Shown here: piece by piece, positions 12,234-63,556 of the stretch
Position numbering within the stretch: the stretch's first letter is position 1
Layout of the letters: the number at the start of each line of letters is the position of its first letter
Source of the DNA: Candidatus Woesebacteria bacterium GW2011_GWB1_39_10
GTDB lineage: Bacteria > Patescibacteriota > Microgenomatia > UBA8517
Direction: 5' to 3'
Length of the DNA: 64,000 nt
Assembly: GCA_000993205.1 (NCBI GenBank)
Contig: LBVU01000002.1
Span: 117,079 to 181,078, forward strand
Notes under the pieces: model-generated
Told to the model about the DNA's origin: nothing
Database searches by the model: none
The model's input: only the letters and a program-made list of their open reading frames with translations
Position numbers and translations under genes: made by a program

Positions 12234-13490
12234 CTATAAAGCTAGTAGTATTGAAGCAATTATCACCAATATCCCCACTCCGCCCGCAACAACTGTCGGC
12301 CAATCCGTACCCGTAACAGGAATTGGCCTGGGTGTTGAACTGGTTCCCGCTGAGGAGCCACTTGCAGTCCCTGTCGCGGTTGGTGTCGCAGTGGCAGTGG
12401 CGGTTGCTGTGGGAGTAGCCGTTGCTGTGGGAGTAGCTGTCGCGGTTGGTGTCGCAGTGGCAGTGGCGGTTGCTGTGGGAGTAGCCGTTGCTGTGGGAGT
12501 AGAAAGACATGTAATCGAAAAATTATCAAATTTTGCAGTAGTTGCTGGAAGTGGGTTGCCAGTTACCGGCATAGCAGCAAGACTGATAATCAAATCATCA
12601 GTTAGCGTGGTTGTAAAAACAATTAATTCTGTGAAAGTTGACGAGTTGGATAGTTTGTATGAAGTTGTAATTTTACCAGACTTTCTTTCGACCTTAAAGC
12701 TGACACTGTCAGTTCCATTAATTACCACAGATTTGTTTTGGTTGCCTGGAACAAAATTAACAGCCACATTATGCGCTTCTTGTTTAATATTTCTTCCAAC
12801 TGTAACTATTTTTGAACCATCTGGACTCACCAAAATAAGTGTTCCAGTAACCGCTCCTGTCCCCGTCTTAGTAAGAGCAGGCGCATCAAAAGTAATCACA
12901 AAATCTCCTGTTAAATATTTGGTACTGGTTATTTTAGATCCAGTTTGTTGCCCAGAAGTTACATCGAGAACCAACTGACCAGAAGACACTTTTGCATCCC
13001 CGACCTTACTCCATTTAGCAGAATCAATTGTGCTATCAAAACTATCAGAAAAGTTGTCTGAACAAGTCATACTTCCAGTTGGCCCCGGAGTTGGGGTCGC
13101 GGCAGCGCACTCAGTCATATCTTTGGTCCAAGCTCCGTTAAGTGACGGGCAGCAATATTGACTCCCTCCACATGATCCTATCCTACCGACTCGGTTACAA
13201 AGCTGTTCGTCCGGAGATCCATCGGCCTGGGCAGGGGTACAATTTCTTAAATGCGAAGGCGCCCCCGTGACAGGACACTGCTCGGCAGTAGGACAAGTTG
13301 TAGTCTGGGCCTTCTCTTGAATATTCTGTCTTTGACGCACAAGAAGTACTCCAGCAACAACACTAAGGATTAAAAAAACAACAATTAAAAAAGTCACTAT
13401 GATCCCCTTTTTTCCAAAACTCTTCTTCTTTGTTGAGGTTACTATTTCAAACGGAGAGGTTGTTTGCTTGTTAAGATTTTGGTCAGGCAT
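12234..13490 (-). CDS. cell-surface protein: N-terminal signal anchor, Cys-rich module, jelly-roll (LamG/ConA-like) segment, Pro-Thr-Ala repeat linker, C-terminal IPVTG plus hydrophobic anchor
   Basis: N-terminal TM IIVTFLIVVFLILSVVAGVLLV; (PTATAT)n repeats; C-terminus PIPVTGTDWPTVVAGGVGILVIIASILLAL resembles an LPXTG-type sorting signal. Confidence 0.6.
   Translation of the reverse strand: MPDQNLNKQTTSPFEIVTSTKKKSFGKKGIIVTFLIVVFLILSVVAGVLLVRQRQNIQEKAQTTTCPTAEQCPVTGAPSHLRNCTPAQADGSPDEQLCNRVGRIGSCGGSQYCCPSLNGAWTKDMTECAAATPTPGPTGSMTCSDNFSDSFDSTIDSAKWSKVGDAKVSSGQLVLDVTSGQQTGSKITSTKYLTGDFVITFDAPALTKTGTGAVTGTLILVSPDGSKIVTVGRNIKQEAHNVAVNFVPGNQNKSVVINGTDSVSFKVERKSGKITTSYKLSNSSTFTELIVFTTTLTDDLIISLAAMPVTGNPLPATTAKFDNFSITCLSTPTATATPTATATATATPTATATPTATATPTATATATATPTATGTASGSSAGTSSTPRPIPVTGTDWPTVVAGGVGILVIIASILLAL
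12340..12510. repeat. DNA-level tandem repeat (about 66-bp unit x2 plus partials) encoding the PT/AT-rich linker
   Basis: gttgctgtgggagtagccgttgctgtgggagtagctgtcgcggttggtgtcgcagtggcagtggcg repeated. Confidence 0.7.
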
Positions 13491-14933: not shown

Positions 14934-14965
14934 AATTGTAAATTGTAAATTGTAAATTGTAAATT
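14934..14965. repeat. Intergenic tandem octamer (AATTGTAA)x4
   Basis: aattgtaaattgtaaattgtaaattgtaaatt; reverse-complement copy caatttacaatttacaatttacaa at 39589-39612. Confidence 0.8.
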
Positions 14966-18276: not shown

Positions 18277-18882
18277 CTATAGTTCGCGGCGGCCTTCTAA
18301 GGCTTGGGTCAGAGTTGTCTCATCAGCATATTCTAAATCTGCTCCCGTTGGAATCCCCATCCCCAGGCGCGTAATTTTTAATTTTAAATTATTAATTTTT
18401 AATTGCTTGCCGAGGTACATGGCGGTAGCATTCCCTTCCATTGTGGGGTTTGTAGCAATAATTAGTTCAGATACTGGATACTCGATACTAGATACTCGCT
18501 TCAGTAAATCGTCAATATATAGTTCATCCGGGCCTATATTTTCCAATGGATTAATCGCCCCATGAAGAACATGATAAACACCTTTAAAATGAGTTCTTTC
18601 GAACGCAAGAATATCTAGGGGTTGCTCTACTACCATCACTAACGATTTGTCCCGCATCGGGTCTGTGCAAATCGGACAAGGGTCGTCCTCACTAATATTT
18701 TTGCAAATTGAACAAAGTTTTGTGTTTTTCTTCAAATTTAGGATTGAATCGGCAAACTCATCGAGTTGGACTTGAGGAACATGCAAAAGATAATAAGTAA
18801 GGCGCTGAGCGCTTTTTGGCCCGATACCAGGAAGCTTGCTAAAAGATTCAATTAGAGCGGTAATGGGACGAGCTATTTTCAT
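18277..18882 (-). CDS. recR: recombination protein RecR
   Basis: C4 zinc finger CSICKNISEDDPCPIC and Toprim LIIATNPTMEGNATAMYL; dnaX-ybaB-recR context. Confidence 0.92.
   Translation of the reverse strand: MKIARPITALIESFSKLPGIGPKSAQRLTYYLLHVPQVQLDEFADSILNLKKNTKLCSICKNISEDDPCPICTDPMRDKSLVMVVEQPLDILAFERTHFKGVYHVLHGAINPLENIGPDELYIDDLLKRVSSIEYPVSELIIATNPTMEGNATAMYLGKQLKINNLKLKITRLGMGIPTGADLEYADETTLTQALEGRREL
18470..18498. repeat. GATACT(G/C/A) heptamer tandem x4 in frame inside recR
   Basis: gatactggatactcgatactagatactcg; encodes ...SSIEYPVSE... Confidence 0.75.
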
Positions 18883-18905
18883 AACATCATCGTGTCGTTC
18901 TAGAC

Positions 18906-18962
18906 CTTGTCATTCTGGAGTCCCGCCCTGCGGGACGATAGAATCTTATTAGTATAGAATCT
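18906..18962. mobile_element. MITE-like palindromic intergenic element, copy A (inverse orientation, core about 45 bp)
   Basis: cttgtcattctggagtcccgccctgcgggacgatagaatctta is the reverse complement of 41148-41192. Confidence 0.6.
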
Positions 18963-18966
18963 AACT

Positions 18967-19263
18967 ATGATATCAAAAAGTTACTATATATACATCCTCA
19001 CTAATAAATATAACAAAGTCTTATATATTGGTGTCACAAACGACCTGATTAGAAGAGTTTATGAGCACAAAAAACATTTTATTGAAGGCTTCACTCAAAA
19101 ATATCATGTCGACAAATTGGTTTATTACGAGATGTTTGACGATCCTCTAACAGCAATTAAAAGAGAAAAAACTCTAAAAAATTTGTTAAGGAGAAAAAAG
19201 GAAGAACTAATAAACAAAATGAATCCTATGTGGAAAGACTTATATGAAGAAATCTTGAGTTGA
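18967..19263 (+). CDS. GIY-YIG domain nuclease-like protein (98 aa)
   Basis: YYIYILTNKYNKVLYIGVTNDLIRRVYEHK is a canonical GIY-YIG motif. Confidence 0.8.
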   Translation: MISKSYYIYILTNKYNKVLYIGVTNDLIRRVYEHKKHFIEGFTQKYHVDKLVYYEMFDDPLTAIKREKTLKNLLRRKKEELINKMNPMWKDLYEEILS

Positions 19264-19264
19264 T

Positions 19265-19331
19265 AAGATCCTATCGGCCTTCGGGCCTCCAGGATGACAA
19301 TTGGCCTCCAGGATGACATCCTCAGGATGAC
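19265..19331. mobile_element. MITE-like palindromic intergenic element, copy E (with internal duplication of the CTCCAGGATGACA end)
   Basis: agatcctatcggccttcgggcctccaggatgacaattggcctccaggatgacatcctcaggatgac; same architecture as 41108-41192. Confidence 0.55.
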
Positions 19332-19618
19332 TATTTTCCCAATCCCCCCAGAAGCCCTCCCAAACCCCCGCCCATTTCCATCATTTTCTTAGCAGATTCT
19401 TTTTGCACCCTCTTCATTGCTTCGTTTATCAAATCAACCAACTCCTGCAAATCTTCACCATCTTTTTTGATATAGCGGATTTTCTGATCCCCTGTAACGG
19501 AAACGGTCCAGCCCTTTTTTTCCAAAGTTTCAATTATTTTTTCAAGTTCCTTCTGAAGTTCTGCGGCCTTTTTCCGCATTTCGTTGAGTTGTCCCAGTTG
19601 TTTAAATTTGTCAAACAT
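19331..19618 (-). CDS. ybaB: nucleoid-associated protein YbaB/EbfC (start taken at MFDKFKQ)
   Basis: Size, DNA-binding central region, gly-rich C-terminus; located between dnaX and recR. Confidence 0.8.
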   Translation of the reverse strand: MFDKFKQLGQLNEMRKKAAELQKELEKIIETLEKKGWTVSVTGDQKIRYIKKDGEDLQELVDLINEAMKRVQKESAKKMMEMGGGLGGLLGGLGK

Positions 19619-19619
19619 A

Positions 19620-21062
19620 TTAATTCCCAAATATCTCTTCTGCAACCTTGATTATATCCTTATCCTTTCCTTCAGTCAAAATTGGTTCAATTTTTGTCTC
19701 TTCAATTATTTTTTTAGCCGGAGGCTCAACCAATGTACAAACGACTCTCGTGGGCGACTGTAAAACTCTGGCAACTATATTCTCTAAAACCTGTCTGTGC
19801 TGTGTATCTTCCAAGCGTTCTTTATGAAATTTGTAATAAACTCCCAAGGTCAGAGTTTTACCATCATAAGCCACTGGGCGAGCAGCCCGAAGTAACGCTT
19901 CGATTGAGGCATTTATTGGTTTTATTGAAGACAAAATAGTATTCCAAATCTCTCCTTCAACCTCCATATTTTCGACAGCCGCCTCAACTGTTTCTACAAC
20001 TTCCTCGACAGAAGTCTTGTCTCCCATGTCCCCACTCTTAGTTATCAGTTCTTCGTTCTTAGTTTCACCTCCACACCATTTTATTACGGCGATCTCGAGT
20101 GGTAATTCTTCGATAGGCGAGTCGGGTACTTGTCGGTTGGCCTCAATCAGGAGTTCTGCCAAAACTATCAGTTCGCGATTTTCTGAAATATCCAAGATAA
20201 TATTTTTGTGTATTTCAATTAGAGCCTGCTTAAGTATTCCTTCGGCACCCGCACCTGCCTCAACTGCGTTCTTAATGTAATTAAGGGCATTATGCAGATT
20301 TTTCTTGTATAGAAAACCGACAAACTCATCTACCCCCTGCGCTTTGCCTTTTTCCAAAAAATTATTACCTTCAACACTAACCTGCTCTAAAAGCTTTACC
20401 GCGTCCCTAAACGATCCGTTGGCGGCGCCGGCGATATCTTCCAAAGTTTTTGGATCAAAATCGAGTTTTTCCCCTTTAATCACACGTGTTAAAGATTGCC
20501 GGATTTCTTCAGAGCTTGCTTTCCTGAACCTGATAAATGTTGTCCTCGACCGGATTGTATCAATAAGTTTTTCCGGATTTGTTGTTGCTAAAATAAAAAC
20601 TACGTGTTCCGGGGGTTCCTCAATGGTTTTGAGAAGTGCATTACTGGCCTCAGTTGTTAACATGTGAGCCTCATCAATAATATATACTTTTTTATTCGCT
20701 TTTACCGGGGAGAGTTTGACGACGTCTCTTAGTGTTCTTACATCATCAATTCCACGGTGAGAAGCGGCATCCATTTCAATTACATCCAAATTATTACCTT
20801 TTGTTACGGAAACACATTGTTCACACTTATCACAAGGTTCATAGCTTTTCACTTTTAGCTTTTCACTTTTAGCTATCTCCTCACAGTTTATTATCTTTGC
20901 CATTATTCTCGCCGCGGAAGTTTTGCCTGTCCCTTTTGGCCCGGCGAATAAGAAAGCATGAGGAATTTTGCCCGAACTTACGATCTTTTTTAATGACTCA
21001 CGAACCTCAGGCAAGTCAAGTTCATCTAAATTATTTGAACGGTATTTTAGATAGAGAGTCAT
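19620..21062 (-). CDS. dnaX: DNA polymerase III subunit gamma/tau
   Basis: AAA+ Walker A GPKGTGKTSAARI, zinc module CEEIA..CDKCEQC; contains in-frame KSEKLKVKS insertion. Confidence 0.92.
   Translation of the reverse strand: MTLYLKYRSNNLDELDLPEVRESLKKIVSSGKIPHAFLFAGPKGTGKTSAARIMAKIINCEEIAKSEKLKVKSYEPCDKCEQCVSVTKGNNLDVIEMDAASHRGIDDVRTLRDVVKLSPVKANKKVYIIDEAHMLTTEASNALLKTIEEPPEHVVFILATTNPEKLIDTIRSRTTFIRFRKASSEEIRQSLTRVIKGEKLDFDPKTLEDIAGAANGSFRDAVKLLEQVSVEGNNFLEKGKAQGVDEFVGFLYKKNLHNALNYIKNAVEAGAGAEGILKQALIEIHKNIILDISENRELIVLAELLIEANRQVPDSPIEELPLEIAVIKWCGGETKNEELITKSGDMGDKTSVEEVVETVEAAVENMEVEGEIWNTILSSIKPINASIEALLRAARPVAYDGKTLTLGVYYKFHKERLEDTQHRQVLENIVARVLQSPTRVVCTLVEPPAKKIIEETKIEPILTEGKDKDIIKVAEEIFGN
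20843..20873. repeat. Tandem repeat (CTTTTCACTTTTAG)x2 inside dnaX, reverse complement of the AAAGTGAAAAG family
   Basis: agcttttcacttttagcttttcacttttagc; encodes AKSEKLKVKS in dnaX. Confidence 0.75.
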
Positions 21063-28340: not shown

Positions 28341-28452
28341 GTCATTCTGGAGCGCTTTGCGCGATATGCTAAGCATTCGCTGCGCGATAGAATCCCAGAC
28401 ATTCCGTTTCCTTTGTCCGCCGCAGATCGGAAGTAATCCAGGAAACCTGACC
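28341..28452. mobile_element. MITE-like palindromic intergenic element, copy B, immediately upstream of rpsB
   Basis: gtcattctggag-cgctttgcgcgatatgctaagcattcgctgcgcg-atagaatc ... ggaaacctgac; ends related to copies A, C, D. Confidence 0.55.
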
Positions 28453-32185: not shown

Positions 32186-32213
32186 TGTTCTACTGTTCTA
32201 GAACAATAGAACA
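32186..32213. promoter_or_regulatory. 28-bp near-perfect palindrome TGTTCTACTGTTCTAGAACAATAGAACA (CTAG core), putative operator of the TrpR-like regulator
   Basis: Identical 28-mer at 63008-63035 and related 20-mer at 63537-63556 flanking the TrpR/YerC-like gene. Confidence 0.55.
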
Positions 32214-37118: not shown

Positions 37119-37251
37119 CGAATTATTCTAACATTAAAAAGAAGTATGTCTAACTCACTATATTGATATGTACCAATATAGTGTCGGCAACAAATCTGAC
37201 TTAGAATTGTACCATTGTTACATAACAATGGTACAAAACGTCAATTTATTA

Positions 37252-38406: not shown

Positions 38407-40524
38407 ATGATTAAATTACAAAAAATTATTTTCATTCTTTTTGCAATTCTTTTTTTCTTCGTTCCTTTAGTTTTGTGGCCGTATACATCTGAAGTTTTTG
38501 AATTTAACAAAATAGTCTTGGTATACATATTTACGGTTTTGATAGTTGCCGCATGGTTTGCAAGGACTGTCCTTGCACAAAAGATAATATTTCGTCGCAC
38601 AATATTAGATATACCACTTTTGGCATTTTTAGCTTCGCAATTTAGCTCAACCATTCTTTCGATAGACCCATCAACTTCTTGGTTGGGATATTATTCCAGG
38701 TTTAACGGCGGACTGCTTTCTACTATTTCCTATTCCCTACTTTATTGGGCCTTCGTTTCCAACTTAGACCGAAAACACGCCCTATATACTATATATTATA
38801 TACTTGCCTCCGCCTCGCTTGCTTCTGTTTACGGCGTATTAGAGCACTTCGGCATCGATAAAGCCCTCTGGGTTCAGGATGTTGCTTCCCGTGTATTTTC
38901 TACTCTTGGACAGCCGAATTGGCTGGCGGCGTTCCTCGTCGCGCTCCTGCCTATTACATGGGCTTTGGCGCTCACAAGATTCCAGATTCCACAACGAAGT
39001 TGGTTACGTAATTCCAGATTCTTGATACATTTCTTGCTTTCGATCCTATTTTTTTGGACATTAATATTTACCAAATCAAGATCGGGGCTTTTAGGATTTG
39101 GTGTAGCATTTCCGATTTTTTGGATGGGATATTTTTGGCTAAACCGAAAAAGTTTCTTGAAATGTCTTTCCCCTTTTGCCATTATTAGTTCTTCACTATT
39201 AATTATTAGTTTAATTTCCGGTACTCAATATACTCCCAACCTATATAACTTCTTAATTAAAACCAATAAAGGCTTGCCGGCCGAAACCCTGGTGAAGGCT
39301 GGGCCGGCTCTTGAAGTCGGTGGAACCGAGTCCGGTACTATCCGGAAAATCGTATGGCGCGGGGCTATCGAAATATGGAAACAGTACCCGATTTTTGGAA
39401 CAGGCGTCGAAACTTTTGCTTTTTCTTACTACCAATTTAGGCCCGTCGAACACAATTTAGTCTCCGAATGGGATTTTATTTACAACAAAGCACACAATGA
39501 GTACCTTAATCTCGCAGCCAATACAGGTAGTTTTGGATTAATTGCCTATTTAGTTCTTGTTAGTTTCTCGATATATCAAATGATTAAGAATTTACAATTT
39601 ACAATTTACAATTTACAAACAAATTCTAAGTTTGAAAATTTCAAAAATGAAAATTTATTGAAAATTGGTAATTGGAAATTGGTAATTCTCGGCCTCTTGG
39701 CCGGTTATACAAGTCTTCTCGTAACCAATTTTTTTGGTTTTTCGGTCGTTCCAACCCAACTCCAGTTATTTTTATTTCCGGCGATAGCGATTATTTTAGC
39801 TAAAAGTGAAGAGGTAAAAGTGAAAAGTGAAACGATAAATACCAATCAAAAAGTTCTAATTCTTATAACGCTCTTAGTTCTTAGTTATTCGCTTTTCGTT
39901 ATCGGCAAATATTGGTATTCCGATACTCTTTATGCCAAAGGTAAGGGATATAACAGCATTCAACGACCGGATGCCGCCATCAACTATTTAGTCCGGGCTA
40001 CTAATATGAAACCCAACCAACCACTATTTCACAGTGAGTTGGCAAACTCATACGCGGCCATGGCGCTTGCTCTTTATAACCAGAAAGACATAAATGGATC
40101 TAAAAAGTATGTCGATTTGGCAATTAGCGAATCAGACAAATCTGTTACCCTTTCTGCCTCTATGCTGAATTTAAAAAGATCGCGTTTTGGAGTATTCGTA
40201 GTGCTTTCAACTATAAATCCGAACCATCTTCTTATTGCCCAAGAAACTTTAATTGATGCTATAACATTTGCTCCAACCGATGCAAAACTTTATTACAATT
40301 TAGGTCTGACCTACGCAAGAACCGGCCAACCGGACCGCGCAATTGAAATTCTAATTAAAACAATCGGTTTAAAAGCCAATTACAGAGACGCAAGGCTTGC
40401 ATATGCATATCTCTTAATTGACAAGAACAAGAACACTGAGGCAAAAGAACAACTCGGATATATTCTTAAATCTATCGACCCCAACGATTCACTTGCCAAA
40501 CAGGCGCTTGAGAGCATCAAATAA
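38407..40524 (+). CDS. O-antigen ligase (Wzy_C) family membrane protein with C-terminal TPR repeats
   Basis: RKIVWRGAIEIWKQYPIFGTGVETF matches the R..W....P.GxGxG.F ligase motif; about 10 TM helices; TPR-like C-terminus; contains three in-frame oligo repeats. Confidence 0.75.
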   Translation: MIKLQKIIFILFAILFFFVPLVLWPYTSEVFEFNKIVLVYIFTVLIVAAWFARTVLAQKIIFRRTILDIPLLAFLASQFSSTILSIDPSTSWLGYYSRFNGGLLSTISYSLLYWAFVSNLDRKHALYTIYYILASASLASVYGVLEHFGIDKALWVQDVASRVFSTLGQPNWLAAFLVALLPITWALALTRFQIPQRSWLRNSRFLIHFLLSILFFWTLIFTKSRSGLLGFGVAFPIFWMGYFWLNRKSFLKCLSPFAIISSSLLIISLISGTQYTPNLYNFLIKTNKGLPAETLVKAGPALEVGGTESGTIRKIVWRGAIEIWKQYPIFGTGVETFAFSYYQFRPVEHNLVSEWDFIYNKAHNEYLNLAANTGSFGLIAYLVLVSFSIYQMIKNLQFTIYNLQTNSKFENFKNENLLKIGNWKLVILGLLAGYTSLLVTNFFGFSVVPTQLQLFLFPAIAIILAKSEEVKVKSETINTNQKVLILITLLVLSYSLFVIGKYWYSDTLYAKGKGYNSIQRPDAAINYLVRATNMKPNQPLFHSELANSYAAMALALYNQKDINGSKKYVDLAISESDKSVTLSASMLNLKRSRFGVFVVLSTINPNHLLIAQETLIDAITFAPTDAKLYYNLGLTYARTGQPDRAIEILIKTIGLKANYRDARLAYAYLLIDKNKNTEAKEQLGYILKSIDPNDSLAKQALESIK
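39589..39687. repeat. In-frame tandem repeats (CAATTTACAA)x3 and (GAAATTGGTAATTG)x2 inside the O-antigen ligase-like gene
   Basis: aatttacaatttacaatttacaaa 39589-39612 and gaaaattggtaattggaaattggtaattc 39654-39687. Confidence 0.75.
39798..39832. repeat. AAAGTGAAAAG-family tandem repeat in frame (encodes EEVKVKSET)
   Basis: agctaaaagtgaagaggtaaaagtgaaaagtgaaa. Confidence 0.75.
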
Positions 40525-40567: not shown

Positions 40568-41101
40568 ATGATCAGAAAGATAATTCAATCGGGTAACCCG
40601 ATTTTAAGACGAAAATCCAAAAACATTGCCAAGGTGGACAAAAAGGTTCAGGAGATAATCAGGGATCTGAAGGATACATTAAAGACCCAAAAAGAACCGG
40701 AAGGTGTGGGCCTGGCAGCTCCCCAAATCGGCAAGAATCTGAATATCTTCATTGCTAGCTACAAAAATTTTCAACGAGTGGTAATAAACCCTGAAATTTT
40801 GAAAATTTCAGGAGCTAAAAGTGAAAAGCTAAAAGTGAAAAGTAAGAAGGAAATACTCGAAGGCTGCTTGTCACTTCCTTATTACTACGGACCTCTAAAA
40901 CGAGCGGATAAAATCACCGTTAAATATCTAAACGAAAAAGGAGAAGAAATTACGGAAGATTTAGAAGGTTTTGATGCTCAAATAATTCTTCACGAAATTG
41001 ATCACCTTGAGGGAAAATTGTTCATCGACAGACTTTTTGAAGAAAAGAAACCCTTGTATAAAGTTGATGGAGATGAATGGGAAGAGGTGGAGCTTTCGTA
41101 G
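40568..41101 (+). CDS. def: peptide deformylase
   Basis: EGCLSLP and HEIDHLEG metal-binding motifs; def-fmt pair; carries in-frame KSEKLKVKSKK insertion. Confidence 0.92.
   Translation: MIRKIIQSGNPILRRKSKNIAKVDKKVQEIIRDLKDTLKTQKEPEGVGLAAPQIGKNLNIFIASYKNFQRVVINPEILKISGAKSEKLKVKSKKEILEGCLSLPYYYGPLKRADKITVKYLNEKGEEITEDLEGFDAQIILHEIDHLEGKLFIDRLFEEKKPLYKVDGDEWEEVELS
40813..40842. repeat. AAAGTGAAAAG-family tandem repeat in frame inside def
   Basis: agctaaaagtgaaaagctaaaagtgaaaag. Confidence 0.8.
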
Positions 41102-41107
41102 GAAAGC

Positions 41108-41192
41108 GACATCCTGAGGCGGCAGCCGAAGGATCCTGTCAATATTAAATAAGATTCTATCGTCCCGCGTTGCGGGACTCCAGAATGACAAG
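41108..41192. mobile_element. MITE-like palindromic intergenic element, copy C (85 bp, between def and fmt)
   Basis: gacatcctgagg...gaaggatcct...aataagattctatcg-tcccgcgttgcggga-ctccagaatgaca; imperfect TIRs GTCATCCTGAG / GTCATTCTGGAG. Confidence 0.65.
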
Positions 41193-56990: not shown

Positions 56991-57021
56991 AATAACTAAG
57001 AGCTAAAAAGTAAGAACTAAT

Positions 57022-57051
57022 AGCTTTTCACTTTTCGCTCTTCACTTTTAG
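57022..57051. repeat. AAAGTGAAAAG-family repeat (reverse complement) encoding the C-terminal KLKVKSEK of RNase HII and forming an imperfect hairpin with 57000-57021
   Basis: agcttttcacttttcgctcttcacttttag opposite agctaaaaagtaagaac. Confidence 0.65.
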
Positions 57052-57720
57052 TTTGTTGAGCCAAGTGGCGACGAAGGCTTTCCTGTGCAATTTAGTCGCT
57101 CCATATTTTTTGATGGCATTTTGGTGTTCTTTTGTCCCATACCCTTTGTTTTTACCCCATTTGTAAACTCTAAATTTTGGATTTTTGGAGATTTTTACCA
57201 TTAGTTTATCCCGATAGACTTTGGCGACAATTGAGGCTGCTGCGATTGAAATCGATTTCGTATCCCCTTTAATAATGGCCTTTTGGTTTTTTCTTCTTAG
57301 ACTCCTTACGTAAGGTATGAAGAAGGCGTCAATGAGTAGATACTCGATACTGGATACTTTGATACTCACACTTTTGATCGCTTTACGGAAAGCTATTTCT
57401 GAGGCTTTTTTTATCCCAAACCGATTTATTTGTGCCACACTTGCCTGTCCGATTCCAATCGCAAGTGCATTTTGCCGTATCCATTTATCTGCAACTTTCC
57501 TCTGTCTTGGAGTAAGTTGTTTTGAGTCGTTGATAATTATTTTGCGATTACCTTTCAAGACCGTGTCTTTAAAGGTGGTTATAGTATTTCTGTCAAAGAC
57601 AACACATCCTGCCACAATTGCGCCGGCAAAACAGCCTCTACCTACCTCATCCATACCGGCAACAACCTTAAAACCTTTATTCCACAGCTTCTTTTCAAAG
57701 GAGAAATCCGGAAGTGTCAT
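57028..57720 (-). CDS. rnhB: ribonuclease HII
   Basis: VAGMDEVGRGCFAGAIVAGCVVF catalytic N-terminus; contains in-frame SSIEYLLID insertion and KVKSEK tail. Confidence 0.88.
   Translation of the reverse strand: MTLPDFSFEKKLWNKGFKVVAGMDEVGRGCFAGAIVAGCVVFDRNTITTFKDTVLKGNRKIIINDSKQLTPRQRKVADKWIRQNALAIGIGQASVAQINRFGIKKASEIAFRKAIKSVSIKVSSIEYLLIDAFFIPYVRSLRRKNQKAIIKGDTKSISIAAASIVAKVYRDKLMVKISKNPKFRVYKWGKNKGYGTKEHQNAIKKYGATKLHRKAFVATWLNKLKVKSEK
57339..57367. repeat. GATACT(C/G/T) heptamer tandem x4 in frame inside rnhB
   Basis: gatactcgatactggatactttgatactc. Confidence 0.75.
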
Positions 57721-59071: not shown

Positions 59072-59500
59072 ATGGCCAGAAAAGTAAAAACAATCGTTAA
59101 GATCAATTTAAAGGCGGCTGAGGCAACCCCAGCCCCTCCTGTGGGAACAGCGTTGGGACAACACGGCGTTGCCATTATGGAGTTTGTTAAACAGTATAAT
59201 GATAAGACTAAAGATCTTAAAGGTCAGGTTGCTCCGGCTGTAATCACGATCTACGACGACAGAAGCTTCACTTTTACTATCAAAAGAGCACCTGTTGCCG
59301 ATATGATCAAAAAAACCTTGGGTATAGAAAAAGGTTCCGGTAAAACCCCAAGGGAAACCGCAGGAACTCTAACCCGCGAAATGGTCAAAAAGATTGCCGA
59401 GGAAAAGTTGGAAGACTTAAATACTAAAGATGTAGAAGCTGCAATGAAAATCGTAGAAGGAACAGCAAGAAGTATGGGAGTGACGGTAGCGTCATCCTGA
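59072..59500 (+). CDS. rplK: 50S ribosomal protein L11
   Basis: PAPPVGTALGQHGVAIMEFVKQYN conserved L11 N-terminal domain. Confidence 0.93.
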   Translation: MARKVKTIVKINLKAAEATPAPPVGTALGQHGVAIMEFVKQYNDKTKDLKGQVAPAVITIYDDRSFTFTIKRAPVADMIKKTLGIEKGSGKTPRETAGTLTREMVKKIAEEKLEDLNTKDVEAAMKIVEGTARSMGVTVASS

Positions 59501-59563
59501 GTTTTACGAAGGATCCTATTAATATAACAAAAGATTCTATCGCTAACGCTCCAGAATGACATC
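59491..59563. mobile_element. MITE-like palindromic intergenic element, copy D (overlaps last three codons of rplK, ends 7 bp before rplA)
   Basis: gtcatcctgag-ttttac-gaaggatcct-attaatataacaaaagattctatcg-ctaacg-ctccagaatgacatc; colinear with copy C. Confidence 0.65.
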
Positions 59564-63007: not shown

Positions 63008-63035
63008 TGTTCTACTGTTCTAGAACAATAGAACA
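63008..63035. promoter_or_regulatory. 28-bp palindrome TGTTCTACTGTTCTAGAACAATAGAACA directly abutting the stop codon of the TrpR-like gene
   Basis: Identical to 32186-32213. Confidence 0.55.
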
Positions 63036-63536
63036 CTATTTGCGATATAATTCACTATTCATTTCAGCTATTTCTTTATCTATTACCTCTTTTTCCGACA
63101 TTTTCTCAATTAGCTCTTTGGGAGTTTTATCTTGTTTCTCTGCTACAGCATATTGCCCAGTGGCTAACAGTAATTCCGGTAAATGAAATTCAATCGGACC
63201 ATGTGGAATTTTGGTTGGTTTGCCCCATTTTAATGGCAACTTCGCGATCGCCTTCTTAAATCCATTTCCACCTTTTTCCAACCAAATGTTAACTTTATTC
63301 ACAGTTCCCAAACTTGAATGAGTTTCCCGAACGACTTCACGCTGATGTTTGCCAGAGAGCAATAGTTTGGCTATACGAAGCCTTATTGAAAGAATTTTTA
63401 TTTCGTTGGCGGTAAGCAGATCCTCAAGGAAATCCGCTATTTCAGAAGCATTTCTTAAGTCCTTAAATGAGTTTACCAAATCAAACATCAAACTTACCTT
63501 TTCCTCGTTTCCTAATTTTTCCGCTTTCTGTTTCAT
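63036..63536 (-). CDS. TrpR/YerC-YecD-family DNA-binding protein with C-terminal extension
   Basis: FLEDLLTANEIKILSIRLRIAKLLLSGKHQREVVRETHSSLGTVNKVNIWLEKGG matches the Trp-repressor-like family pattern. Confidence 0.7.
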   Translation of the reverse strand: MKQKAEKLGNEEKVSLMFDLVNSFKDLRNASEIADFLEDLLTANEIKILSIRLRIAKLLLSGKHQREVVRETHSSLGTVNKVNIWLEKGGNGFKKAIAKLPLKWGKPTKIPHGPIEFHLPELLLATGQYAVAEKQDKTPKELIEKMSEKEVIDKEIAEMNSELYRK

Positions 63537-63556
63537 TGTTCTAGAACATTAGAACA
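63537..63556. promoter_or_regulatory. Palindrome TGTTCTAGAACA plus TTAGAACA directly abutting the start codon of the TrpR-like gene, putative auto-operator
   Basis: Shares the 12-bp CTAG-core palindrome with 32186-32213 and 63008-63035. Confidence 0.55.

Follow-up and report, generated by a model that had tools for sequence, protein, structure and literature searches.

The window considered here, a stretch of 64,000 nucleotides from Candidatus Woesebacteria bacterium GW2011_GWB1_39_10 (contig LBVU01000002.1, positions 117,079 to 181,078), contains between the host genes recR and ybaB a gene for a 98-amino-acid (aa) protein with a single GIY-YIG nuclease domain. By homology, this protein is a member of the Ssn family of nucleases, and its gene is enclosed by two hairpin-forming repeat units in inverted orientation. 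The locus is probably best understood as the gene of an Ssn-family nuclease along with the hairpin repeats cognate to this enzyme, built according to the NTS-ssnA-NTS architecture of Neisseria and long resident at one place, in a manner reminiscent of repetitive extragenic palindromic (REP) sequences, their inverted doublets (REPINs) and the REP-associated tyrosine transposases (RAYTs).

The Ssn family has been defined by Chenal et al. (2025, Nat Commun 16:2388; PMC11893778) as single-domain GIY-YIG proteins of about 94 aa (CDD cd10448, GIY-YIG_unchar_3), homology to SsnA of N. meningitidis at E < 1e-10 being the criterion of membership. In the window protein the Pfam GIY-YIG match spans residues 6-78, and BLASTP aligns the protein with the 94-aa SsnA orthologue of N. 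gonorrhoeae at 47% identity over 90 aa (E 7e-30). The link to N. meningitidis SsnA is made through this orthologue, which falls in one 90%-identity cluster with N. meningitidis proteins, fits the Y6/Y17/E64 numbering of SsnA and is located among NTS repeats. A protein search of a plasmid collection also matched N. gonorrhoeae records, in which the homologue lies among CGTCATTCCCGCGCAGGCGGGAATC repeats, the classical dRS3 element. Residues Y9, Y20 and E67 of the window protein align with Y6, Y17 and E64 of SsnA, where the substitutions Y6A, Y17A and E64A abolish cleavage (PMC11893778). Together with R30 and H34, these three residues are invariant in 25 homologues. The AlphaFold model (pLDDT 89.5) has a minimal GIY-YIG fold, with UPF0213 (BH0048), Slx1 and the UvrC N-terminal domain as best fold matches, in that order. 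Only two solved structures are related by sequence, both of UPF0213 proteins (PDB 1zg2 and 1ywl; best E 1.8e-7), a group that Dunin-Horkawicz et al. (2006) placed among the bacterial Slx1-like proteins. The homologue family is very large, with more than 8000 matches in the protein search as a lower bound, and includes a hypothetical protein of Microgenomates group bacterium GW2011_GWC1_39_7b, also of the Candidate Phyla Radiation (CPR), that is 100% identical to the window protein.

Characterized Ssn proteins bind the NTS hairpin as single-stranded DNA (ssDNA) only, and only one of its strands, and cut a few nucleotides upstream of the hairpin; they show no activity on double-stranded DNA (dsDNA) and do not bind RNA (PMC11893778). 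The most important base for binding is the C that follows the palindrome, while cutting depends most on the three bases that precede it. In N. meningitidis, SsnA reduces transformation by NTS-bearing DNA. With a degenerate pattern termed SRM, a repeat was found near 71% of homologues and on both sides of 42%. Furthermore, the similarity of NTS-ssnA-NTS to an insertion sequence (IS) was discussed, as was the analogy with REP, RAYT and bacterial interspersed mosaic elements (BIMEs), mobility not being demonstrated in that work (PMC11893778). A literature search for GIY-YIG in combination with REP sequences, miniature inverted-repeat transposable elements (MITEs), terminal inverted repeats or repeat sequences gave nothing relevant.

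The hairpin units around the gene have the same general layout (Table 1). The left unit consists of a GTC tag, the 5' arm ATTCTGGAG, a TCCCGC-CCT-GCGGGA distal stem-loop, the 3' arm CGATAGAAT and a trailing C; it folds as ssDNA at -9.9 kcal/mol (z = -4.4) and ends 21 nt upstream of the ssn ATG. Read on the minus strand, the right unit consists of GTC, ATCCTGGAG, GCC-CGAA-GGC, CGATAGGAT and C, and it begins 3 nt past the ssn stop codon. The two are inversely oriented, with their tags facing outward. Outside the right unit, two orphan 5' arms form a "stutter", the outer of which abuts or overlaps the stop codon of ybaB. The consensus of the units is GTC-ATYCT-G(G)AG-(distal stem-loop)-CGA(T)-AGRAT-C, and as ssDNA they fold into a basal stem of 5-6 bp, a 2x2 internal loop of G·A/A·G and a distal stem. 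In the whole window there are seven full units, all with the trailing C and six with the GTC tag (GAC in the remaining one). The motif GTCATYCTGRAG, with at most one mismatch, matches 8 times in the window against 0.86 expected, a number reached in 0 of 100 shuffles, and CAGRATGAC also matches 8 times, with 0.76 expected. A sequence-only reading of this DNA had described a GIY-YIG open reading frame (ORF) on the plus strand inside a minus-strand dnaX-ybaB-recR operon, flanked by inverse copies of a palindromic element. The ORF coordinates and Pfam matches bear out the former point. Both copies of the element also exist and are inverted, but the limits given to them (18906-18962 and 19265-19331) were too wide, the remainder of the left copy up to 18962 being leader of the gene.

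Table 1. Genes and repeat units of the window, with positions counted from its first nucleotide
Feature	Position	Strand	Basis or remark
ssn-like gene, 98-aa single-domain GIY-YIG nuclease	18967-19263	+	Pfam PF01541, E 6e-16
Left hairpin unit (SRM-like)	18909-18945	+	Sequence reading and regex
Right hairpin unit	19267-19298	-	Sequence reading and regex; fold -6.6 kcal/mol as ssDNA
Two orphan 5' arms outside the right unit	19306-19317 (GTCATCCTGGAG); 19320-19331 (GTCATCCTGAGG)	-	Motif scans
TATAGAATC box in the 21-nt leader	18953-18961	+	Duplicate of the 3' arm
Solo unit with long distal insert	28341-28394	+	3 nt upstream of the start of an opposite-strand rpsB-like gene
ORF-less inverted doublet	41108-41189	.	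Unit 41108-41135 (+), 17-nt spacer, unit 41153-41189 (-)
ORF-less inverted doublet	59491-59560	.	Unit 59491-59515 (+), 17-nt spacer, unit 59533-59560 (-)
recR	18277-18882	-	Pfam RecR domains; flanking host gene, downstream in the operon
ybaB	19331-19645	-	Pfam PF02575; flanking host gene
dnaX	19620-21062	-	Clear Pfam match

The bracket of hairpins is not restricted to this genome. It was examined in 80 homologous loci (L001-L080) from about a dozen phyla, among them cyanobacteria, CPR, Clostridia, Chloroflexota, Ignavibacteria, Proteobacteria and Planctomycetota, with a strict unit pattern (GTC followed by ATxxx and, further on, the complement of ATxxx). A forward unit lies within 150 nt upstream of the gene in 53 of these loci and a reverse unit within 150 nt downstream in 59, both being present in 47. 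With a density of 0.39 units per kb away from the gene, the bracket is enriched about twenty-fold over background. Where adjacent units bracket the gene, their orientation is +/- in 39 of 51 cases, and in 27 of 56 loci 0-9 nt separate the stop codon from the beginning of the downstream unit. If the trailing C is required as well, 349 units are found in real sequence against 12 in shuffles. Most loci missed by the strict pattern have variants, with a GTCAC tag or mismatched stems. The basal stem varies by lineage (ATTGC, ATCCT, ATTCT, ATTCC, ATCCC), always with its complement, while the GTC tag, the GAG...CGA arms and the trailing C are constant. Proteins with the same type of flanking hairpin are more similar to each other (62.5% vs 55.9% identity; a difference reached in 0 of 2000 permutations). 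Homologues in different phyla occupy unrelated genomic contexts, always adjoining hairpins. The proposal of the sequence-only reading that nuclease and palindromic element belong together is thus upheld across phyla.

Some features of these arrays point to change that may still be going on. An extra GTCATxxx arm is present at most 60 nt upstream of 48 of the 349 units, mostly 19-26 nt away. Such stutters, tandem 5' arms with some 7-12 nt of flank, lie on the outside of the units, where the Ssn nick is expected; besides the window (19306-19331), examples are found in L253 (2195-2260 and 2830-2895), L034, L016 and L004. Repeated rounds of nicking and repair could have left them as footprints. 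The flanking units also vary in number and in order between samples of two other lineages, at loci whose Ssn proteins are 100% identical.

Several side observations were made on these homologous loci. The P0031 loci (L181-L189) contain a second palindromic repeat family, GGAGGAGGGCTATGCCCTCCTCCAACTCCACCC and variants, interleaved with GTCAC-tagged Ssn hairpins, and its copy number varies between samples encoding the identical Ssn protein. On a Planktothrix agardhii plasmid (L253; NZ_LR882964.1, 16350-21613), the ssn homologue and its hairpin arrays lie inside a defence island, with an MmeI-type restriction-modification gene on one side and the DISARM gene drmA on the other. In IMG/VR, relatives are encoded on 62 viral contigs (L190-L251), possibly as phage genes or as part of host DNA within prophage calls; the forward-gene-reverse bracket is present in 11 of the 42 closest of these relatives.

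By homology with the characterized enzymes, the window protein would be a site-specific endonuclease that acts on ssDNA only. Its substrate would be the hairpin into which the GTC-tagged strand of a unit folds, and this strand would be nicked in the non-conserved flank, a few nucleotides 5' of the tag. Binding would depend on the trailing C and on the AT-start of the stem, cutting on the GTC tag. As the flanking units are inverted, there would be one cleavable unit on each DNA strand, and the two predicted nick sites lie immediately beyond the ends of the module. Further targets in the same genome would be provided by the solo unit and the dispersed doublets, and all targets would become exposed when the DNA is single-stranded, that is, during replication, uptake by transformation or infection by ssDNA phages. 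The system may have a role in spreading the repeats or in restricting incoming ssDNA. That the nuclease targets the element, as the sequence-only reading had supposed, is supported by analogy, characterized homologues binding such hairpins and cutting next to them (PMC11893778).

The history of the recR-ybaB junction can be followed in relatives. The identical protein is encoded on 24 contigs, all with the gene order recR-ssn-ybaB-dnaX. The closest Ssn homologues (73-78% identity) also lie between recR and ybaB (P0011 in L254-L256, P0014, and P0006 in L257), and among these occupied relatives an Ssn identity of 75-78% parallels that of RecR (73-81%) and roughly that of YbaB (67-80%). L257 keeps both hairpins, with the compared arms as in the window except for one base (the left 3' arm ends in GAAAC, vs GAATC in the window), and its distal stem differs from that of the window yet still pairs. 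Across a protein divergence of about 25%, the hairpin arms have been conserved and the distal stem has undergone compensatory change. L254-L256 have the downstream hairpin and a remnant of the upstream one; in L254 the right hairpin is kept, the left side has only a ATAGAATC box and the gene is intact. Since the junction is common to the closest homologues, and their divergence keeps pace with that of recR and ybaB, the module has long been resident here and did not arrive by a recent hop. Low GC content of the ssn ORF (28%, vs 40% in the flanks) was considered as a sign of recent horizontal arrival and rejected because relatives at the same junction show the same offset.

Other relatives lack the module. 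A GIY-YIG gene is present at the junction in none of 80 metagenomic loci carrying RecR relatives. Among the closest of these (69-78% RecR identity), five (L092, L093, L095, L099 and L100) have a gap of -4 to +17 nt between ybaB and recR, which measures 448 nt in the window. A tree from RecR alone gave too little resolution. In a neighbour-joining tree of three genes (599 columns), two pairs each have 100% bootstrap: the window with L257, where both junctions are occupied, and the occupied L254 with the empty L093. All outgroups are empty. Therefore, the module has been gained within this clade, either once with subsequent precise loss or twice at the same junction. Together, these data suggest that in a Microgenomates lineage the module has long occupied the recR-ybaB junction as a single copy, in the manner of RAYT/REP rather than of an active insertion sequence or a homing gene. 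An empty site among relatives, for which the sequence-only reading had advised a search, is thus documented. The gene at this locus without any flanking element, which that reading would have taken as its refutation, was not seen: hairpins or their remnants accompany it in L257 and L254-L256. The composite mobile unit proposed in the same reading has the relatives with an empty junction in its favour and the in-step divergence of the closest homologues at one junction against it, and is kept as a conjecture.

A number of points weigh against the reading of the locus as a long-resident Ssn gene with its cognate hairpins. The activity of the window protein, and that of its hairpin variant as a substrate, is predicted from homology: activity was assayed on Neisseria and Wolbachia proteins only, and a biological role has been reported for Neisseria only (PMC11893778). 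The published SRM pattern, HGTCWYN(0-2)YYVSBRHN(0-5)WNVSBRGN(0-2)RNCYNB, matches none of the seven window units and occurs near the gene in only 3 of the 80 loci, while the positive controls are recovered (NTS matches, and there are 9 matches in the Neisseria locus). Therefore, the hairpin differs from every one tested so far. The pattern misses the commonest hairpin class around this Ssn clade, GTCAT-xxx-GAG...CGA-xxx-ATC, for example GTCATTGCGAG...CGAAGCAATC. Since no unit matches, the repeats of the window are here called an SRM-like variant, the strict published definition of SRM being too narrow for them. Furthermore, the units nearest to the Neisseria ssnA orthologue (L252, 2380-2830) are oriented reverse-gene-forward, opposite to most lineages. 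Finally, L254 has lost the upstream hairpin with its gene intact, so that the full bracket is not required for keeping the gene.

Away from the gene, the window contains two inverted doublets without an ORF, in addition to the solo unit. The first doublet fills the intergenic space ahead of an fmt-like gene, and its plus-strand unit (ATCCTGAG...CGAAGGAT) is the one with GAC in place of GTC. In the second, the stop codon of the upstream ORF (59072-59500) falls inside the first unit. Each doublet combines one arm of the ATTCT/GGAG...CGAT type, as on the left of the gene, with one of the ATCCT type, as on its right, and the 17-nt spacers align with the short leader of the ssn gene. Between the left end of the gene-bearing unit and 41148-41192 (45 nt), complementarity is 93%. 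Judged by the criteria for MITEs, the ends of the doublets match those of the gene-bearing unit, no target-site duplication is seen at the gene-bearing pair or at either doublet, and only two doublets are present in 64 kb. Both doublets, at 41.1 kb and at 59.5 kb, have the look of miniature gene-bearing units from which the ORF is missing.

These miniatures raise the question whether the hairpin-ssn-hairpin unit is an autonomous mobile element, driven by its nuclease and active now or recently, with the doublets as its non-autonomous derivatives similar to MITEs or REPINs. We consider this unlikely, although a good deal can be said for it. The architecture, with outward-facing tags at both ends, is IS-like, and the doublets reproduce the left/right asymmetry of the gene-bearing unit, with one end 93% identical over 45 nt and a spacer that aligns with the leader. 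Empty junctions with a gap of -4 to +17 nt, the empty outgroups and the sister relationship of an occupied and an empty locus (100% bootstrap) would also be expected of it, as would the varying numbers of hairpins beside genes for identical proteins. The protein is 55-67% identical across phyla, far above usual housekeeping genes, and homologues occur on viral contigs. However, the gene has kept its place between recR and ybaB, its divergence matching that of these neighbours, and the low GC content common to its relatives gives no sign of recent arrival. No target-site duplication is found at the three pairs, only one gene copy occurs in 64 kb, where a second GIY-YIG gene was not found, and identical proteins are always in one context: P0001, P0057 and P0031, each on many contigs, show no dispersal of identical copies. 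Since the units are inverted, with one cleavable site per strand, single-strand excision of the IS200/IS605 type is not available. GIY-YIG enzymes hydrolyse DNA without a covalent intermediate and are not known to have a strand-transfer chemistry, which also counts against an active transposon. It is likewise doubtful that the module represents a new class of prokaryotic transposable element, in which an ssDNA nickase together with host replication or repair would copy the gene-bearing unit and the doublets to new intergenic sites, and in which the interleaved occupancy of the junction would reflect independent insertions.

The GIY-YIG domain is a classic fold of homing endonucleases, and the protein might therefore be a free-standing enzyme of this kind that cuts the empty ybaB-recR junction, or a doublet, and is copied in by double-strand-break repair. 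Repeated site-specific gain could account for the interleaving of occupied and empty junctions among relatives, and the position of the gene corresponds exactly to that of the spacer in a doublet. Nevertheless, such an origin, which the sequence-only reading had also put forward, is very improbable and has been abandoned here. The 98-aa protein is a bare catalytic domain without a NUMOD or helix-turn-helix DNA-binding domain, and its sole NCBIfam match, the group I intron endonuclease model TIGR01453, stays at 20.3 bits, below the cut-off of 56 bits. Furthermore, the two doublets of the window have not been filled by the gene, the homologues in different phyla have unrelated contexts and are always beside hairpins, and characterized Ssn proteins do not cut dsDNA (PMC11893778).

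That the hairpins are ordinary terminators or mRNA-stabilizing stem-loops, placed beside the gene by coincidence, is hardly credible: all units do lie in short intergenic spacers and one terminator-like match overlaps the outer orphan arm, but the conservation of the GTC tag, of the trailing C and of the GAG...CGA arms does not depend on pairing, the bracket exceeds background about twenty-fold in the 80 loci, most units have no T-run, and characterized homologues bind no RNA (PMC11893778). A known RNA element was also considered and rejected, Rfam giving only tRNAs in the window at gathering thresholds; nothing was found at these thresholds in 20 homologous loci, and nothing credible at E up to 10 around the locus.

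The module may contain a promoter for its own gene. The TATAGAATC box in the leader includes a -10-like TAGAAT that ends 6 nt upstream of the ATG; the ssn mRNA is therefore possibly leaderless. The box is kept directly upstream of the ATG in L254 (2985-3000) and L257 (1990-2008). TATAAT is found 5-6 nt upstream of the ATG in the P0031 and P0057 loci. Several distant lineages, L171-L180 and L181-L189 among them, thus have TAGAAT or TATAAT as a -10-like box whose end is 5-8 nt from the start codon. This suggests a leaderless ssn transcript from a putative promoter inside the module. A scan for promoters and terminators gave no more matches than in shuffles. On the other side of the left unit (18886-18913, minus strand), its outward-facing end contributes the hexamer ATGACA which, with GATGAT 16 nt further, forms a weak sigma-70-like promoter toward recR, whose match in the scan does not exceed chance. 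Through such a promoter, recR might have regained its expression once the operon had been split.

The window also contains repeats of other kinds. At 12348-12515 there is a tandem array with a period of 18 nt, in seven overlapping copies of 66 nt and GC-rich in comparison with the window, which is probably a repetitive coding segment. A (near-)perfect palindrome of 28 nt, TGTTCTACTGTTCTAGAACAATAGAACA, occurs four times (32186-32213, 37208-37235, 63008-63035 and 63529-63556) and looks like an operator site. A/T-rich periodic repeats, of a 14-nt AGCTAAAAGTGAAAAG type and a 7-nt AATTTAC type, are found on both strands near gene ends (20837-20892, 39797-39842, 40799-40857 and 57016-57057; also 14934-14965 and 39583-39618) and are unrelated to the Ssn hairpins.

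The arrangement at the recR-ybaB junction is real but explained in outline by the known Ssn system. What this locus adds is an example from the CPR, whose genomes are very small, a hairpin variant outside the published search pattern, two ORF-less doublets and a solo unit, and occupied and empty junctions among relatives. A large clade of close homologues in many phyla uses this different hairpin design, which the published pattern misses, and censuses based on that pattern therefore probably undercount the system. The occupied and empty junctions, together with the conserved arms and compensatory distal stem of the hairpins and with doublets that mirror the gene-bearing unit, provide comparative evidence on the question of mobility that was left open (PMC11893778). 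New pairs of hairpin and enzyme are also of practical interest, since Ssn enzymes are under development as sequence-specific ssDNA cutters.

Compared with other GIY-YIG proteins, the window protein differs from homing endonucleases of the I-TevI and I-BmoI type, in which the nuclease is joined to a C-terminal DNA-binding domain that is absent here. It shares the minimal fold of the UPF0213 or bacterial Slx1-like proteins (PDB 1zg2 and 1ywl; the E. coli YhbQ group), but its identity to these is about 30%, far below that to SsnA, and no association with hairpin repeats has been reported for them. The Ssn/NTS system of N. meningitidis is much closer (PMC11893778). Both have a single-domain GIY-YIG protein of about 95 aa in which equivalents of Y6, Y17 and E64 are conserved, a gene flanked on both sides by oriented hairpins with a 5' GTC tag, a palindrome starting with AT and a C after the palindrome, and further copies of the repeat dispersed in intergenic DNA. 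The differences lie in the host, a CPR bacterium (Microgenomates) from a group unmentioned in that work, in the hairpin, with its short A/T-rich basal stem (ATYCT/AGRAT), tandem G·A internal loop (GAG...CGA) and separate distal stem, and in the low copy number of 7 units in 64 kb.

Likenesses are also found outside the GIY-YIG enzymes. The "peel and paste" elements of the IS200/IS605 family have a small single-domain enzyme as well, with subterminal ssDNA hairpins and cleavage at a short flanking motif. However, their hairpins lie on the same strand, which allows excision of one strand, whereas the window units are inverted; the catalytic fold is different, and the window gene is not multicopy. 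With the REP/REPIN-RAYT systems, the locus shares a single-copy nuclease gene bracketed by inverted copies of a hairpin that is, as predicted here, recognized as ssDNA. The repeats of both consist of a conserved short tag and a variable palindrome and occur as inverted, REPIN-like doublets and alternating, BIME-like arrays, and both show long vertical inheritance at one locus. In contrast to the HUH Y1 transposase TnpA-REP, the enzyme here is a GIY-YIG hydrolase without a covalent 5'-phosphotyrosine intermediate, and the tag is GTC(A) instead of GTAG or CGTC. By this analogy, the resemblance to REP/RAYT is one of how the system would work, not of family membership.

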